Shown piece after piece: positions 1 through 5,001 of a stretch of DNA of 5,001 nucleotides; within the stretch, counting starts at the first letter, position 1; each line of letters opens with the position of its first letter. This DNA comes from a virus: positions 1 to 5,001 of IMG/VR virus record IMGVR_UViG_3300045988_000140. One strand, 5' to 3'. The notes under the pieces were generated by a model, which ran no database searches, was not told where the DNA came from, and was given only the letters and a program-made list of their open reading frames with translations. Position numbers and translations under genes: made by a program.

Positions 1-55
1 GATGCTGAGTAGAACGATTAACAGAAGACATGTACTTATCCAATAGCTATAGATA
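1..55. repeat. Terminal redundancy from circular wrap: 1..55 is identical to 4947..5001, giving a 4946-nt unit genome
   Basis: Direct base-by-base comparison: gatgctgagtagaacgattaacagaagacatgtacttatccaatagctatagata occurs at both ends. Bases 1..31 duplicate the first codons of VP1 on the - strand (ATG at 31..29 corresponds to 4977..4975). Confidence 0.95.
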
Positions 56-293: not shown

Positions 294-331
294 AAAAAAA
301 GAACCATCTTACCAAGGTGGGTAAAATGGTT
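294..331 (-). terminator. Rho-independent-terminator-like hairpin with a U7 tract downstream of VP3
   Basis: Coding strand reads AACCAUUUUACC-CACCUU-GGUAAGAUGGUU, then C, then UUUUUUU. Bases 302..313 pair with 320..331 (11 bp with one mismatch at 308/325). The A7 run at 294..300 on + gives U7 on the coding strand. The position after the last gene of the coding block is appropriate for a terminator. Confidence 0.55.
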
Positions 332-835: not shown

Positions 836-864
836 CAAAAAAGTCCTCGCACTGCGCAAGGACT
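836..864 (-). terminator. Terminator- or attenuator-like hairpin with T-run between VP5 and VP3
   Basis: Coding strand reads AGUCCUUGCG-CAG-UGCGAGGACU (864..842). That gives 8 Watson-Crick pairs and 2 G.U pairs around a 3-nt loop, followed by UUUUUG (841..836). It lies directly upstream of the VP3 SD. Confidence 0.4.
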
Positions 865-931: not shown

Positions 932-1192
932 TTTGGAGTCCTCAATCGTAGAAACAAAAGCAGTCGCGGCAGCAATCTGTGTCGGGGCAGAGGCTACAAG
1001 CTCTCCAGTCTCATCAGAGTACTGACCAATCTCATAAAGAAAGAAATCGTCGGGATGCTGACCAACGGTAGTGCGACTATCACGAACGAGATCAGAAAAA
1101 GACCGAGATGCATCAGCTGCAGAACGGCTGAAGAACGGCGTATTAAAAACCTGAAGTTTAGAGTCGAAAACGGAAAAAACCTTAAGGATCAT
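902..1192 (-). CDS. VP5: VP5-like small non-structural protein (96 aa)
   Basis: The N-terminus MILKVFSVFDSKLQVFNTPFF.RS...A.RSF.D matches my recollection of gokushovirus or chlamydiaphage VP5/ORF5 proteins. The ATG overlaps the VP4 stop as ATGA (1189..1192), which suggests translational coupling. Its position between VP4 and VP3 is canonical. Confidence 0.8.
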   Translation of the reverse strand: MILKVFSVFDSKLQVFNTPFFSRSAADASRSFSDLVRDSRTTVGQHPDDFFLYEIGQYSDETGELVASAPTQIAAATAFVSTIEDSKAAAPAKAEV

Positions 1193-2106
1193 GATTGATT
1201 CTCTTCCATAACGCGTCTGAGTTTAGCGGCTTTCAGTTCTTGGACGCGTTCACGAACTGAGAGACGTTGCGGCGAAGCTTCGCCAGTATCTTCAAAATCG
1301 CGACCTCGCTTTTCGCGAAGACGCTTAATCTCTTCATAACGAACAATATCAGAACGCTCCAACAACTTATCAAAATAAGCTGGAGGATTCATCATAATCT
1401 TCTCGCTAAGAATAAGTCGATCATTAGTATAAATATCAGTCATGTACTTTTCACAAAAGTCATGACCAATGCCAGGTTTCAAAGAGCAATGACAAAATTC
1501 AGCAACCTTACCATCGTAATGCTCAAGCTTCAAAGGACCTGTAATTTTCTTCGTAACATAACGAGCGACATAAGCGGCAGTCTCAAAGTTGACTGAACCA
1601 ATCGAACTAAAACCATACGGCCAAAGTTTCTCAAGCGTACGGCTACGATATAAGTTATTGCCTCGACGAATCGACCAGAGCTGTTTATCTACAAAAGTAA
1701 CGCCAAAAATTATGGCGTGATAGTGAGGACGACCAAGCTTATCGCCATACTCACCACACATGAAAAAGCGAAGCTGTTGACCAAAACGGCTCATGAAGTA
1801 TTTACGCATGCGCTTCATGAACAGCTGAAAATGCTCGTAATGAAGTGAGCCATCTTCAGGCAAGTGAGCATCGTCATAAGTCAACGTAAGAAACATGTTG
1901 TTCTTATGTGACTTAGCTTCAACAACACATCGAGCGGCCCATTCACGAGACTTAGAAAGACGACAACCAATGCATTGACCGCAAGGAATCTTAAACTCAG
2001 AAAACGGAATAGCCTTCGAAGGATCAAAGGTTACAGCGTTGCGAGTACCGTCTTTAGTCTTAGATCCGGCGAGTCGATAAGCCGTTATCGGGTGAAAGCA
2101 AGGCAT
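1189..2106 (-). CDS. VP4: Replication initiation protein VP4 (HUH rolling-circle endonuclease, 305 aa)
   Basis: Motif 1 is FLTLTY (aa 72-77). The HUH motif PHYHAIIF has HYH at aa 128-130, and nt 1725..1717 read CAC TAT CAC. The catalytic Tyr motif is AAYVARYVTKK (aa 177-187). A Cys cluster PCGQCIGC lies near the N-terminus. The stop overlaps the VP5 start. Confidence 0.93.
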   Translation of the reverse strand: MPCFHPITAYRLAGSKTKDGTRNAVTFDPSKAIPFSEFKIPCGQCIGCRLSKSREWAARCVVEAKSHKNNMFLTLTYDDAHLPEDGSLHYEHFQLFMKRMRKYFMSRFGQQLRFFMCGEYGDKLGRPHYHAIIFGVTFVDKQLWSIRRGNNLYRSRTLEKLWPYGFSSIGSVNFETAAYVARYVTKKITGPLKLEHYDGKVAEFCHCSLKPGIGHDFCEKYMTDIYTNDRLILSEKIMMNPPAYFDKLLERSDIVRYEEIKRLREKRGRDFEDTGEASPQRLSVRERVQELKAAKLRRVMEENQS

Positions 2107-2390: not shown

Positions 2391-2513
2391 TTAAATGCGG
2401 AAACCGCCGCGCATAGGCGTAGCACGAGTATTCAAAGTCTTCGTACGTGATGCACCTTTACGGAAAATACGCTTAGATACCTTACGAGAAAGCTTATGAC
2501 GACGACGAGACAT
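2391..2513 (-). CDS. Small basic DNA-binding/packaging protein (40 aa), analogous to phiX174 J and chlamydiaphage ORF8
   Basis: Hand translation gives MSRRRHKLSRKVSKRIFRKGASRTKTLNTRATPMRGGFRI*. Fifteen of 40 residues are K/R and there is no D/E. The C-terminal PMRGGFR(I/L) and internal RLF/RIF-RKGA pattern match my recollection of gokushovirus ORF8-type proteins. GAGG (2522..2519) lies 5 nt upstream of the ATG. It is too short for the supplied ORF track. Confidence 0.8.
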   Translation of the reverse strand: MSRRRHKLSRKVSKRIFRKGASRTKTLNTRATPMRGGFRI

Positions 2514-2520
2514 ATAAACC

Positions 2521-2619
2521 TCACTTTTTAAAAAGTTTCTTAACAGCCTTAAAGGCCTCCCAAATAGCTGAACCAGAGTTCAGCAAAACATTAACGAACT
2601 TTAAGATCGTATCTATCAT
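2521..2619 (-). CDS. Candidate micro-ORF, 32 aa, cationic amphipathic peptide
   Basis: Hand translation gives MIDTILKFVNVLLNSGSAIWEAFKAVKKLFKK*. The ATG overlaps the VP2 stop as ATGA (2616..2619). Its TGA (2523..2521) lies inside the GTGAGG SD of the J-like gene, so the ORF fills the VP2-J gap exactly. It has no SD of its own and I recognise no homolog. Confidence 0.4.
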   Translation of the reverse strand: MIDTILKFVNVLLNSGSAIWEAFKAVKKLFKK

Positions 2620-3239
2620 TTCGCAAGATGAGCGGCACCAACAGCGGAATTTGTAAGCGGCGCAGTCGAATTAAAAGGATTAATCAAATTCATCCACTGT
2701 CCAAACTTCCAAGCGCTAGAGTGCTCTTTCATATAATCAAAAGCTAACTTCTGCTTCTCAGAAGCAATAGCAGAATTCTGAGTCATGAATTTCGCTTGCT
2801 TCAAATTCTCTTCTTGAATCTTATTAGCAATCTCTTGACCTTTCGTTTGAGACCACATCAAATTTGAAGAAGAATCAGCAGCAACAGACTGAGCGCGTTT
2901 CAAACCAGCATCTGCTTGAAGAGCCGAATTCTGAACGTAAGTCTGTTTTTCCAAAGCATCTTTCAAATTCTTCTCAGAGTGCTGAGTTGACGTTTCAGCA
3001 CCAGACTTGAAAGCGCCAGCTAAATCAGGAGCGACGATCGGAGGCGCGTTGCCAGGAGTGCCAGAACCGCCAGTGGCAGACAGAATAGGATTAAGGCCAG
3101 CTTTACGCATATCAGCAACTTCCCACTGATGCCTATTCTGCATCGCTTCTTTCTGATGCTTCCAACCAAAATAAGCTGATAAGGCGGAACTACCTAAATT
3201 AGCGACTCCGCCAATTGCTTCTGCCCAAGGGAATCCCAT
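2616..3239 (-). CDS. VP2: Minor capsid / DNA pilot protein VP2 (207 aa)
   Basis: The N-terminal Gly/Ala/Ser-rich segment followed by Q.RH.WEVADMRKAGLNPIL matches my recollection of the conserved motif of microvirus pilot (H/VP2) proteins. The remainder is rich in Q/A/K/E, and by eye looks suited to a coiled coil. AGGA lies 7 nt upstream of the ATG. The position directly after VP1 is canonical. Confidence 0.85.
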   Translation of the reverse strand: MGFPWAEAIGGVANLGSSALSAYFGWKHQKEAMQNRHQWEVADMRKAGLNPILSATGGSGTPGNAPPIVAPDLAGAFKSGAETSTQHSEKNLKDALEKQTYVQNSALQADAGLKRAQSVAADSSSNLMWSQTKGQEIANKIQEENLKQAKFMTQNSAIASEKQKLAFDYMKEHSSAWKFGQWMNLINPFNSTAPLTNSAVGAAHLAK

Positions 3240-3240
3240 A

Positions 3241-3303
3241 TCACTGTCCTAAAGCAAAGATAACAACAGTGCCAACAACGGCAAGCCAAATAACTAAAGC
3301 CAT
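3241..3303 (-). CDS. Candidate micro-ORF, 20 aa, single hydrophobic (transmembrane-like) helix
   Basis: Hand translation gives MALVIWLAVVGTVVIFALGQ*. A consensus SD AAGGAG overlaps the VP1 stop (TAAGGAGTTGTTATG, 5-nt spacing). This SD is too far upstream (over 60 nt) to serve VP2. The TGA stop lies 1 nt before the VP2 ATG (TGAtATG). Confidence 0.5.
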   Translation of the reverse strand: MALVIWLAVVGTVVIFALGQ

Positions 3304-3312
3304 AACAACTCC

Positions 3313-4977
3313 TTAGAAGTGATCAACCAAGCCAGGCACTGAATACACAGGTATCGGACGAGCACACTTCAAACGAATATACGAGTCAAACAAAAACTGT
3401 GGCTCATCCTGAACGGCGATTACACGCTCGACTGGCGGATTATCTTCAATGAATTGCGACGAAAGCGTTGGCAAAGAGCTGAACTTCTGCGATAAATGCC
3501 AGCTGTCAAGCGGCTGCGGATCGGTCGACCGGAACTTGCCAGTGATCTGGCCAGGGTAATAGCGATACTCTGCATAACGCTCTTGATAGCCAAAGACCTT
3601 ATCGTCATCAGCAGTGCCTTGAGCATAGATCTCCTTATTGAGAACAGCTTGTTCGCCAAGATGCGCCAACACAGGCCAATAGAAGTCAAAACGACCTTGA
3701 CGAGACCACATGCGGTTCAAACCTTGCTGGTAAGTCAGGTCAGCGCGGACATTCACAAAACCAAAAACATAGCCATGCTCAACAAAGGACTTAGAGAATC
3801 CATGGAAGGAATCTGAACAAACACCATATGCCGCAAGATTACCCTGAGGAGTCGTTTCATTCGTAGCTGAAGTCTGCTGGACAGGATTGATCGAAATGCG
3901 AGCAGATGAACCACCAAGGTACTCAGGACGTTGGAGACGCGCATCAGGCGAGATTACGCCAAAGTGCGAACGCAAGATCTCTGTGTAGCGCGTACCACCG
4001 CGAGCATCACGTTCATAGAGCTTTTGAATCTGGAAAGCTTGGCGAAGATCGTTGATCGAAATCGGAGTAGCACTAGACAAATCAGCGAACATATTGTCAT
4101 GTAAAACTAGACCACGACCAGCATAAAAAGAAATTCTACCTGGATCCGAAGGGTTATCTGCAGTAAGTGTCACAGGAAAGGATTTAATAACATTACTCCA
4201 AGGCTGATCCTTCGCACCTAAAGTGACAGGATCAGTGTAATTAACAGGATAAGCTCTAGACCAATTGGAAACAGAATAAATACCGTTATCAACATGATAC
4301 GAACCGAACTGAGCTGCCAAAGTGATATCGCCATAAACATTCGCACGGCCACCAAGCGAAATCTCCACGCCAGGTCCCTTTTGCGGCCACGGCAAACATG
4401 ACGTGAAATAGTCATGACGCTTGCCACGACGAACTAAGCTGTAGTCAGACAAATTGTCAGGACCATCGTCGGTTGGAACCTTCAAAGATTCTTGAAGATT
4501 CTCATCTCTAAACCATTCATTAAAAATAAGGTTATAAGCGCGGAAGGGAAGCGCATTAACCTTAAGCGCTTCATTCACATTGGTCGGAAGACCGAAATAG
4601 TCCCACAAGGTCTGATTCTGAACATTCGTGCCGGAAACCGTAGGAATCAAAAAGTCTGTAGAGTCAGTCGGATTTTTCTGCTCACCATTGAACTTCTGCC
4701 AGTTGTCCCAAACAAGACGATTGGGAACAAAAAAGAAAAAAGTCTCCAGATAAAGATTGTCCATAAAAGGAACAATCGGCGTAGCCAAACGAGCAAACAA
4801 AGTAGCAGTCAGCTTAAAGCTATCACCGGGAAGAACTTCGTCGACGTAAAAAGGTACAAGAAAACCGGAGTCAAAAGTTGTCTTATATCCATGAGAACGG
4901 TCAAAGACCGATCGAGGAATCTGAGTCGAAGGAATCTGAGAGAACAGATGCTGAGTAGAACGATTAACAGAAGACAT
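3313..4977 (-). CDS. VP1: Major capsid protein VP1 (554 aa from ATG 4977)
   Basis: The N-terminus ...FSQIPSTQIPRSVFDRSHGYKTTFDSGFLVPFYVDEVLPGDSF matches my recollection of Gokushovirinae VP1. So do the internal CLPWPQKG and INDLRQAFQIQKLYERDARGGTRYTEILRSHFGV motifs and the C-terminal PIPVYSVPGLVDHF*. The track start at 4989 is TTG. ATG at 4977 (MSSVNRST...) is preferred. Confidence 0.95.
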   Translation of the reverse strand: MSSVNRSTQHLFSQIPSTQIPRSVFDRSHGYKTTFDSGFLVPFYVDEVLPGDSFKLTATLFARLATPIVPFMDNLYLETFFFFVPNRLVWDNWQKFNGEQKNPTDSTDFLIPTVSGTNVQNQTLWDYFGLPTNVNEALKVNALPFRAYNLIFNEWFRDENLQESLKVPTDDGPDNLSDYSLVRRGKRHDYFTSCLPWPQKGPGVEISLGGRANVYGDITLAAQFGSYHVDNGIYSVSNWSRAYPVNYTDPVTLGAKDQPWSNVIKSFPVTLTADNPSDPGRISFYAGRGLVLHDNMFADLSSATPISINDLRQAFQIQKLYERDARGGTRYTEILRSHFGVISPDARLQRPEYLGGSSARISINPVQQTSATNETTPQGNLAAYGVCSDSFHGFSKSFVEHGYVFGFVNVRADLTYQQGLNRMWSRQGRFDFYWPVLAHLGEQAVLNKEIYAQGTADDDKVFGYQERYAEYRYYPGQITGKFRSTDPQPLDSWHLSQKFSSLPTLSSQFIEDNPPVERVIAVQDEPQFLFDSYIRLKCARPIPVYSVPGLVDHF

Positions 4978-5001
4978 GTACTTATCCAATAGCTATAGAT
5001 A

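Follow-up and report, generated by a model that had tools for sequence, protein, structure and literature searches.

The short open reading frame that lies between the VP1 and VP2 genes of this gokushovirus is, on the pattern of its substitutions among related genomes, a genuine protein-coding gene under purifying selection on the peptide that it encodes. Our best overall explanation, held with slightly better than even confidence, is that this micro-ORF is a real accessory gene for a late, strongly expressed, single-span membrane micropeptide, with a part in lysis or permeabilisation of the host as the leading guess at its function.

The window, by which we mean the whole 5,001-nucleotide stretch that was analysed, holds a gokushovirus genome, circular and 4946 nt long, plus 55 nt of terminal redundancy, with all genes on the minus strand. 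These include VP1, the major capsid protein (3313–4989; Pfam Phage_F, E = 6e-193); VP2, the DNA pilot protein (2616–3239; assigned from phrog_20617, pilot-protein PHROGs and the GenBank annotation of relatives); VP4, the Rep protein (1189–2106); VP5 (902–1192); and the scaffold protein VP3 (374–859). The micro-ORF (3241–3303, minus strand) overlaps none of the other genes. On the coding strand the junction reads ...CAC TTC TAA GGAG TTGTT ATG GCT ... CAG TGA T ATG GGA..., in which the VP1 stop codon TAA (3313–3315; the protein ends ...DHF) contributes its last two bases as the first two of a Shine–Dalgarno (SD) sequence, AAGGAG (3309–3314). This is placed 5 nt (TTGTT) upstream of the micro-ORF ATG (3303–3301), which is followed by 19 sense codons and a TGA stop codon (3243–3241) and gives the product MALVIWLAVVGTVVIFALGQ, a predicted single transmembrane (TM) helix. 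One spacer nucleotide, T (3240), then precedes the VP2 ATG (3239–3237), the two together occupying 3237–3240.

The initial annotation had described a 20-residue, fully hydrophobic and uncharged peptide, encoded between VP1 and VP2 and ending 1 nt before the VP2 ATG, and had called its SD, with 5-nt spacing, the best in the genome; the coordinates and the composition given here agree with that description. AAGGAG occurs twice on the coding strand, the second copy being within VP1 at 3636, and at no other gene start in the window genome is there as good an SD: VP8 has GAGGT, VP3 has GGAG and VP2 has AGGA, with none or a weak one at VP1, VP4 and a 32-aa ORF downstream of VP2. A TM ORF placed as tightly as this was obtained in 0.2% of random gaps of the genome's composition and in 3% of shuffles of the actual T-rich gap; the arrangement of SD, TM ORF and VP2 exceeds chance.

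Genomes of the clade were collected by a VP1-based search of IMG/VR, by a search for the VP1 end plus SD, and by a search for a pattern in the body of the ORF. The micro-ORF is intact in the 57 distinct related genomes obtained, 53 of them from searches that placed no constraint on the ORF body, and in each of these 53 it is 19–20 codons long. The single exception to its conservation is a clean deletion of the whole ORF in strain L021. Among IMG/VR genomes with a VP1 identity of at least 82%, 15 of 16 have it intact, as do all six of the nearest GenBank records, which are human gut or vaginal gokushoviruses 86–91% identical to the window; in these six the ORF has 20 codons and uses three different stop codons, and nothing is annotated in their VP1–VP2 gap of 73–74 nt. 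Within the clade, whose members are common, abundant, human-associated gokushoviruses, the ORF ends in TGA (30 genomes), TAA (23) or TAG (2) with its length held constant, and the SD varies (AAGGAT, AAGAGG, GAGGAGG and TGGAG) but stays purine-rich throughout. The alignment of related junctions that the initial annotation had proposed as a check on the ORF therefore came out in its favour: SD, start, frame, length, hydrophobicity and juxtaposition to VP2 are all kept in the 57 genomes, together with a codon-position signature.

That signature was obtained by parsimony on a tree built from flanking sequence, which placed 38, 8 and 85 changes at codon positions 1, 2 and 3 of the micro-ORF; the corresponding figures for the last 99 codons of VP1 were 165, 50 and 845. 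Nei–Gojobori dN/dS was 0.22 in the ORF frame, versus 0.89 and 3.3 in the other two frames, and 0.19 for codons 2–15, which lie outside the zone of the VP2 ribosome-binding site. All 45 of the inferred amino acid changes were conservative. It is this codon-position pattern, the low dN/dS confined to one frame, and the conservation of start, frame, length and stop that lead us to treat the micro-ORF as a gene. By comparison, two other readings are vanishingly improbable and are refuted: that the frame is open by chance, and that it is incidental to an RNA or DNA element, for example a structured spacer or a terminator. At 33% T the coding strand is rich in that base, which does favour spurious hydrophobic ORFs, but an accidental frame does not produce codon-phased substitutions or such a contrast in dN/dS between frames. 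Similarly, a weak terminator-like hairpin of 5 bp is present (3283–3270), but it has no T-run and its stem is made up of third codon positions that vary without restriction; folding of the region is poorer than that of its shuffles (MFE z = +1.56, with 192 of 200 shuffles folding at least as well), and RNA structure or a terminator was rejected as the explanation.

The gene is new, being annotated in no database or record. Its exact peptide was absent from a collection of ~15 billion predicted proteins, in which the neighbouring 32-aa product is present from > 500 contigs and a 40-aa product from > 1000. No Pfam, NCBIfam or PHROG family matched the peptide; the top match, phrog_13940, had an E value of 0.15 and is of unknown function.

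The peptide contains no D, E, K, R or H, has a GRAVY score of 2.28 and gives a Wimley–White octanol sum of −8.7 kcal/mol over 19 residues; equal hydrophobicity was found in only 1.4% of stop-free 20-residue windows on the coding strand. At 2.1 kDa and with neither K nor R, the product would escape proteomics based on trypsin. Across the relatives there was no change at W6, L7, A8, V10 or F16–L18, and T12 and G19 were nearly invariant, the former being S in one genome and the latter changed in one genome. Position 11 accepts only G, S, A or C. The replacements that do occur are exchanges among V, I, L, F and A, the substitution of G11 by S, A or C, and free variation of the C-terminal residue. 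Specific helix–helix packing, as opposed to greasy filler, is suggested by the residues that do not vary and by the restriction of position 11 to small residues, and the pattern would suit a packing partner that is the peptide itself, or a membrane segment of the host or of VP2.

Outside the clade, most gokushoviruses have no ORF in the VP1–VP2 slot, including the sister lineages on the VP1 tree, and the VP1–VP2 gap is at most 20 nt in 100 of 215 distinct junctions. Some ~30 gokushoviruses without the ORF have this VP1 end and AAGGAG too, and in them, as in L021, VP2 starts 5–8 nt beyond the SD. As the AAGGAG of these relatives serves VP2 directly, the micro-ORF is a clade-specific insertion that took over the SD of VP2, and by comparison of the junctions the event is an insertion of 63–64 nt between the VP2 SD and the VP2 start in the ancestor of one clade. 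The claim of the initial annotation that this SD cannot serve any other gene consequently stands for the window genome and fails for the ORF-less relatives, where the motif serves VP2. As to the source of the inserted sequence, duplication of the N-terminal hydrophobic segment of VP2 was not supported (best ungapped identity of 8/20 against 98 distinct VP2 N-termini, P = 0.05 versus shuffles), nor was origin from the 5' end of the genome's own VP2 gene, for which nucleotide local alignment was no better than with codon shuffles (P = 0.73). No sequence like the micro-ORF was found elsewhere in the window genome.

The distance from the micro-ORF stop codon to the VP2 ATG is 1–5 nt in 57 of 57 genomes, the intervening sequence being T in 33, TT in 12, TC in 10, TGAT in 1 and TTATT in 1, and this arrangement is suited to termination–reinitiation coupling. 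The gap of 1, 2, 4 or 5 nt also led us to reject the idea that frameshift or readthrough extends VP2 at its N-terminus, as a varying gap length means a varying frame relation to VP2 and excludes fusion by recoding. Codons 16–19 of the micro-ORF (TTT GCT TTA GGA, 3247–3258) include an AGGA 7 nt before the VP2 ATG. With a start 1–5 nt beyond a stop codon and an AGGA inside these codons, VP2 is probably translated by re-initiation or from this weak site in the 3' end of the micro-ORF, and codons 16–19 probably have a dual use, as the C-terminus of the peptide and as a weak ribosome-binding site for VP2. Codons 16–18 are near-invariant at their third positions, with TTT changed to TTC in 2 of 55 genomes and GCT and TTA constant.

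This raises a quite improbable alternative in which the micro-ORF is purely a regulatory upstream ORF, whose strong SD captures ribosomes and passes a reduced, fixed fraction of them to VP2, with VP2 taken to be needed in about 5-fold fewer copies than VP1, and whose peptide is inert. The constant 1–5 nt distance between stop and start is what such a device would have, as is the takeover of the VP2 SD, and some constraint at the nucleotide level is indicated by the near-invariant codons 16–18 and by a synonymous diversity (pS) of 0.19 in the micro-ORF versus 0.48 in the adjacent VP1. The lower synonymous diversity could reflect nucleotide constraint around two start sites, or alternatively a younger age and spread by recombination. 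However, an inert spacer should show a dN/dS near 1 and not the value obtained in the ORF frame; the replacements are exclusively conservative, with W6, L7, A8 and V10 invariant although they lie outside the VP2 ribosome-binding zone; and an independent family of 26-aa ORFs in the same slot has the same selection pattern. A role in coupling can coexist with a function of the peptide but cannot explain everything.

The one strain of ~58 without the ORF is informative. In L021 (IMG/VR) the junction reads TAAGGAGTTGATT-ATG(VP2), with the micro-ORF removed exactly, and the strain is nested within the ORF-bearing clade on the VP1 tree and keeps its seven other genes intact (VP1, VP2, the 32-aa ORF, VP8, VP4, VP5 and VP3). 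L277, a metagenome contig from ENA, has 100% identity to L021 and 94.6% to the window outside VP1; the presence of the deletion in two assemblies shows that it is not an assembly slip. No further independent deletion strain was found in the metagenome collection. A natural deletion in an otherwise intact genome argues that the peptide is dispensable or can be complemented, and, together with the absence of the ORF from most gokushoviruses, it rules out a general gokushovirus lysis gene. An essential role in lysis within the clade is weakened by the same comparison, and any contribution to lysis would be accessory to the clade and not the universal or sole lysis device of gokushoviruses.

Small TM ORFs were also found around VP2 in other gokushoviruses. 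The 26-aa family (MNDLQISTIAIVSLCIIVVLRTFGLI) occupies the same VP1–VP2 slot in a different clade, with ~59% VP1 identity and one contig binned with Phascolarctobacterium; it starts with TTG or ATG 5 nt after GGAGGTG, its stop overlaps or abuts the VP2 start, and its dN/dS is 0.115 in frame versus 0.53 in the +1 frame. In environmental gokushoviruses there is a third family, of 55–60 aa (MD(S)IKW...ECK) and with a single hydrophobic stretch, whose end coincides exactly with the start of VP2, and single hydrophobic ORFs of 41 and 46 aa were found in the slot of others. In some further clades a small TM ORF lies immediately 3' of VP2. None of the slot ORFs of other clades matched a known family. 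By strict criteria about 10 of 70 VP1 clusters have a small TM ORF flanking VP2, so that such ORFs are recurrent and non-homologous but are present in a minority of clusters. The recurrence is reminiscent of single-stranded (ss) RNA phages, in which sgl lysis genes have arisen de novo repeatedly (PMC7693330).

The position of these ORFs also bears on a different and, in our view, unlikely function, in which the peptide acts in superinfection exclusion or as a pilot-associated membrane factor and lysis is done by something else. The helix would then sit in the inner membrane and block incoming gokushovirus DNA, or would, in the course of assembly or entry, bind the VP2 N-terminus, which is hydrophobic. 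The tight coupling of the micro-ORF to VP2 in every case would fit such a function, as would the finding that the small TM ORFs of other clades flank VP2 specifically, whether before or after it; tolerance of natural loss is expected of an accessory, competitive trait, and the conserved small residue at position 11 (G/S/A/C) suggests helix–helix binding. Further, carriage of gokushovirus EC6098 gives superinfection immunity by a mechanism that is unknown (PMC7062461). EC6098-type genomes, however, have no ORF in the slot (L175 has a 40-nt gap), and the immunity of EC6098 therefore does not need one. There was also no sign that the clade is temperate: neither an integrated copy nor a close relative was found among 185,579 species genomes, in which the best matches were in a Veillonella-binned contig of 7 kb (69% VP1 identity) and in a contig of 91 kb from an uncultured bacterium (65%). 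Against a pilot-associated role, the peptide has no detectable similarity to the VP2 N-terminus.

We return to lysis, for which gokushoviruses have no known gene or mechanism (PMC7062461; PMC3394797), in agreement with the statement of the initial annotation that no dedicated lysis gene has been established for them. A search of the literature, mostly outside subscription journals, found no described small membrane or lysis protein of gokushoviruses, which is not proof of absence, and no muralytic enzyme, lysin or peptidase domain, or E-like protein was recognisable in the ORFs scanned. Taken alone, the proposal that the peptide is a membrane-acting effector that contributes to host permeabilisation or to the timing of lysis is a tentative one, to which we give clearly less than an even chance. 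It was arrived at because there is no known gokushovirus lysis gene and no muralytic enzyme, because the evolution of these ORFs is Sgl-like, and because there is a precedent for depolarisation in IbsC. Under this proposal ribosomes would load at the strong AAGGAG or re-initiate after VP1, the uncharged 20-residue helix would be made late and in amounts comparable to those of the structural proteins, and VP2 would then be translated by re-initiation 1–5 nt downstream or from the weak AGGA. A chain of 20 residues is released before it leaves the ribosomal tunnel, and so its entry into the membrane must be post-translational, as it is for IbsC (19 aa) and other micro-peptides. We accordingly rejected the idea that the nascent peptide directs the VP1–VP2 mRNA to the membrane co-translationally (SRP), as the chain never emerges before release. 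The peptide would sit in the cytoplasmic membrane as one transmembrane helix, where its late accumulation might compromise membrane integrity or a membrane-embedded step of envelope synthesis and in this way affect the timing or efficiency of host lysis, as single-gene-lysis, holin-like or type-I-toxin-like peptides do.

Some features do not sit easily with this proposal. The SD is very strong, whereas phiX174 E is kept at a deliberately low level of expression, and such an SD would be a hazard if the peptide were a potent toxin. There are no charged flanks to fix the topology of the helix, and 20 residues are the bare minimum that will span the bilayer. In addition, most TMD-bearing ORFs in a screen of ssRNA phages were without phenotype (PMC7693330).

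Like the micro-ORF product, the Sgl proteins of ssRNA phages (e.g. LysM, 37 aa, which blocks MurJ) are tiny, have one TM helix and are preceded by an SD, and the genomes that carry either of them have no muralytic enzyme. Sgl proteins are non-homologous between clades and have arisen repeatedly at different positions (PMC7693330), as have the small TM ORFs around gokushovirus VP2. The features by which Sgl genes are recognised are found here as an SD with 5-nt spacing, a hydrophobic TM-like peptide and a genome without a muralytic enzyme. The micro-ORF differs, however, in that it comes from a ssDNA phage and is not overprinted on another gene; its product has 20 residues and no extramembrane segment, is predicted to be strongly expressed and appears to be naturally dispensable in one strain. 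The Sgl screen applied a cut-off of 25 codons, above the length of the micro-ORF, and only one functional gene was shorter (PMC7693330). Within the family of the gokushoviruses themselves, phiX174 E (Bullavirinae), an inhibitor of MraY, is likewise a membrane protein of a microvirus and acts through a transmembrane helix at its N-terminus; its lysis mechanism is the only one that has been solved in the family (PMC3394797). Unlike the micro-ORF product it is a protein of 91 aa, encoded out of frame in gene D and weakly expressed, and it needs its C-terminal domain and host SlyD. Gokushoviruses lack E (PMC7062461), and the micro-ORF has no homology to it by Pfam, NCBIfam or PHROG match and no overprinting.

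In size and composition the peptide is nearly identical to the type I toxins IbsA–E (18–19 aa) and ShoB (26 aa), which are uncharged and form one helix. They insert post-translationally into the inner membrane, and cells that overexpress them are depolarised and die. With IbsC, uncharged and of 19 aa, depolarisation of Escherichia coli occurs within minutes, and 15 residues suffice (PMC8309996). These toxins are chromosomal and silenced by antisense RNA, whereas the micro-ORF is in a late phage operon, has a strong SD and shows no sign of an antitoxin. A consensus scan found no promoter-like site on the opposite strand beside the micro-ORF, the nearest plus-strand matches being at 2847–2875 and 4574–4601. 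The peptide matched no family profile, and the likeness is one of possible mode of action and not of membership. It also brings in modulation of host physiology without lysis, for example inhibition of ATP synthase or of a transporter in favour of phage replication. Inhibition of F1Fo ATP synthase has been reported for the 19-aa IbsA (bioRxiv 10.1101/2025.05.26.656083), regulation of larger membrane proteins is the role of many bacterial micro-TM proteins (PMC12648545), and the conserved face of the helix would fit such a role. This is, like superinfection exclusion or an association with VP2, a serious rival to a part in lysis; we nonetheless consider it quite improbable, as nothing specific supports it and a late structural operon with very high expected expression ill suits a subtle regulator.

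Two further kinds of small phage membrane protein are comparable with the proposed effector. The pVII (33 aa) and pIX (32 aa) proteins of filamentous phage are very small, hydrophobic ssDNA-phage proteins without signal peptides; their genes are closely packed with coupled translation, and the proteins insert into the inner membrane. They are, though, virion components of a non-lytic phage that extrudes through the membrane, and nothing places the 20-aa peptide in the gokushovirus capsid. Holins and pinholins are, as the micro-ORF product would be, late-expressed small membrane proteins that work by mass action in the cytoplasmic membrane; they usually have at least 60 aa, with 1–4 TMDs, a charged and usually basic C-terminal cytoplasmic tail and a partner endolysin gene, whereas the micro-ORF peptide has no charged residue and its genome no endolysin.

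The micro-ORF is not the only small gene of the window genome that could act on membranes. The 32-aa ORF, which overlaps the VP2 stop, encodes a cationic amphipathic product (MIDTILKFVNVLLNSGSAIWEAFKAVKKLFKK) with a net charge of +4; its dN/dS is 0.10, it is unannotated in the six GenBank relatives and retained in the deletion strain, and homologues of ~30 aa are present between VP2 and VP8 in sister clades. As a candidate for lysis this peptide is no weaker than the 20-mer; it is a matter of speculation that the two, which flank VP2, could act together. A basic, VP8/J-like protein of 40 aa (phrog_10695) is also unannotated in the six GenBank relatives. Embedded hydrophobic ORFs in the same genome are further lysis candidates.

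A bolder version of the lysis proposal, which we regard as rather doubtful, is that gokushoviruses, in the manner of ssRNA phages, repeatedly invent tiny single-helix 'protein antibiotics' beside VP2 for lysis. If this were true, the 20-residue peptide would be the smallest phage lysis effector known; its helix would probably act as a wedge in some conserved membrane enzyme that takes part in envelope synthesis, or else as a mass-action depolariser, with the conserved cationic amphipathic peptide on the other side of VP2 as a possible partner. It would then provide a first handle on the missing gokushovirus lysis mechanism, as well as a lead for antibacterials that could be made by chemical synthesis.

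In the human gut, gokushoviruses count among the commonest ssDNA phages. Within them, the micro-ORF is a new and unannotated micro-gene family, of a kind that the sequence suggests to be tiny phage-encoded transmembrane effectors. That a selected gene of 20 codons is invisible to gene callers means that even 'fully annotated' genomes of 5 kb hide genes. The peptide is short enough for chemical synthesis and plasmid expression, which makes the ideas of lysis, permeabilisation and exclusion directly testable. The junction also provides a clear evolutionary mechanism, in which a new gene takes over the ribosome-binding site of an older one, which is relegated to re-initiation, and the recurrence of micro-TM genes at VP2 suggests a general, overlooked class of accessory genes in microviruses.

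The micro-ORF, the gene of 20 hydrophobic residues between VP1 and VP2 (window 3241..3303, minus strand), has been removed exactly in a natural strain, leaving the VP2 ATG directly after the Shine-Dalgarno sequence (related contigs L021, 1974..2010, from IMG/VR, and L277, 248..283, from an ENA metagenome). This strain is present in two public assemblies that are 100% identical to each other, and all of its remaining genes are intact. Where the micro-ORF is retained, its synonymous diversity is low (pS 0.19), less than half the 0.48 of the adjacent 3' end of VP1 (3316..3612, minus strand). This low value could reflect constraint at the nucleotide level near two start sites, or it could mark a younger insert that has spread by recombination. 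In two relatives (L119 and L106) the micro-ORF is followed directly by short tandem duplications in which the opening 70-120 nt of VP2 are repeated. These may be assembly artefacts or genuine instability of the junction; VP2 of L106 starts with GTG.

Other small transmembrane ORFs were found around VP2. A different gokushovirus clade carries in the same VP1-VP2 slot an unrelated micro-ORF of 26 aa with a single transmembrane segment, MNDLQISTIAIVSLCIIVVLRTFGLI (L198, about 3090..3200, equivalent to L064 4615..4717; also L199-L210 and L182), which starts with TTG or ATG after GGAGGTG and has a dN/dS of 0.115. An ATG-initiated frame of 23 aa (MTYKSQLL...) at this site, taken from a mechanical ORF list, proved to be the wrong frame. 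A family of 55-60 aa, with the pattern MD(S)IKW..ALP..GG(I/L)V(V/L)WL..G...W...C......V.EC., occupies a VP1-VP2 gap of about 175-390 nt in L085, L276, L086, L174 and L078 and ends exactly at the VP2 start; its coding frame was chosen by eye alone from divergent members, and the locus has another hydrophobic frame that is open as well. Elsewhere, small transmembrane ORFs of 21-80 aa lie just 3' of VP2 and start within a few nucleotides of its stop (L132, L137, L135/L155 and four single-member clusters; for example MFSWLCFGICVLLVCLFVWTVKRFTK and MGTLTIWHWLTVIGIFSLGAYLVWRCIKWLCMKMTGGRF); clades with such an ORF after VP2 have none before it.

The first 40 nt or more of the window (within 1..55) are repeated at 4947 (4947..5001), and the window is therefore a circular genome of 4946 nt with terminal redundancy. 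VP1 was called as a TTG-initiated ORF of 558 aa, and its true start is probably the ATG at 4977. Two strong terminator-like hairpins with T-runs (842..864 and 302..331, minus strand) lie either side of VP3: the first precedes the ATG of this gene (823) by a short distance, and the second follows its stop. On the coding strand, terminator-like sites are about twofold commoner than in shuffled sequences.

Hydrophobic ORFs are also overprinted on three other genes of the minus strand: one of 24 aa on VP4 (1710..1784, TTG start), open in all 57 clade genomes; one of 30 aa on VP8 (2432..2524, GTG start), open in 56 of 56; and one of 39 aa on VP5 (994..1113, ATG start), open in 44 of 54. These are possible embedded E-like candidates, and their openness may be a mere by-product of constraint on the host gene. 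VP8 itself is a highly basic ORF of 40 aa, MSRRRHKLSRKVSKRIFRKGASRTKTLNTRATPMRGGFRI (2391..2513, minus strand; phrog_10695), with its own Shine-Dalgarno sequence GAGGT, and is a J-like DNA-binding protein. It is left without annotation in the six close GenBank records, four of which place the label 'DNA binding protein' on the VP5 homologue instead.

Between VP2 and VP8 lies an ORF of 32 aa, MIDTILKFVNVLLNSGSAIWEAFKAVKKLFKK (2521..2619, minus strand), which begins with an ATG that shares bases with the stop codon of VP2 (ATGA). This ORF is conserved clade-wide, with a dN/dS that is 0.10 in its own frame but 1.0 and 2.0 in the other two, and sister clades (L163, L150, L132, L137 and L027) have in this position ORFs of about 30 aa that share a ..FKAV.. 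motif. It lacks an annotation in all six GenBank relatives; elsewhere, more than 500 contigs label it 'hypothetical protein'. Its product is cationic (charge +4) and amphipathic (muH 0.48), and is a candidate rival or partner of the micro-ORF peptide for a membrane-active or lytic role.
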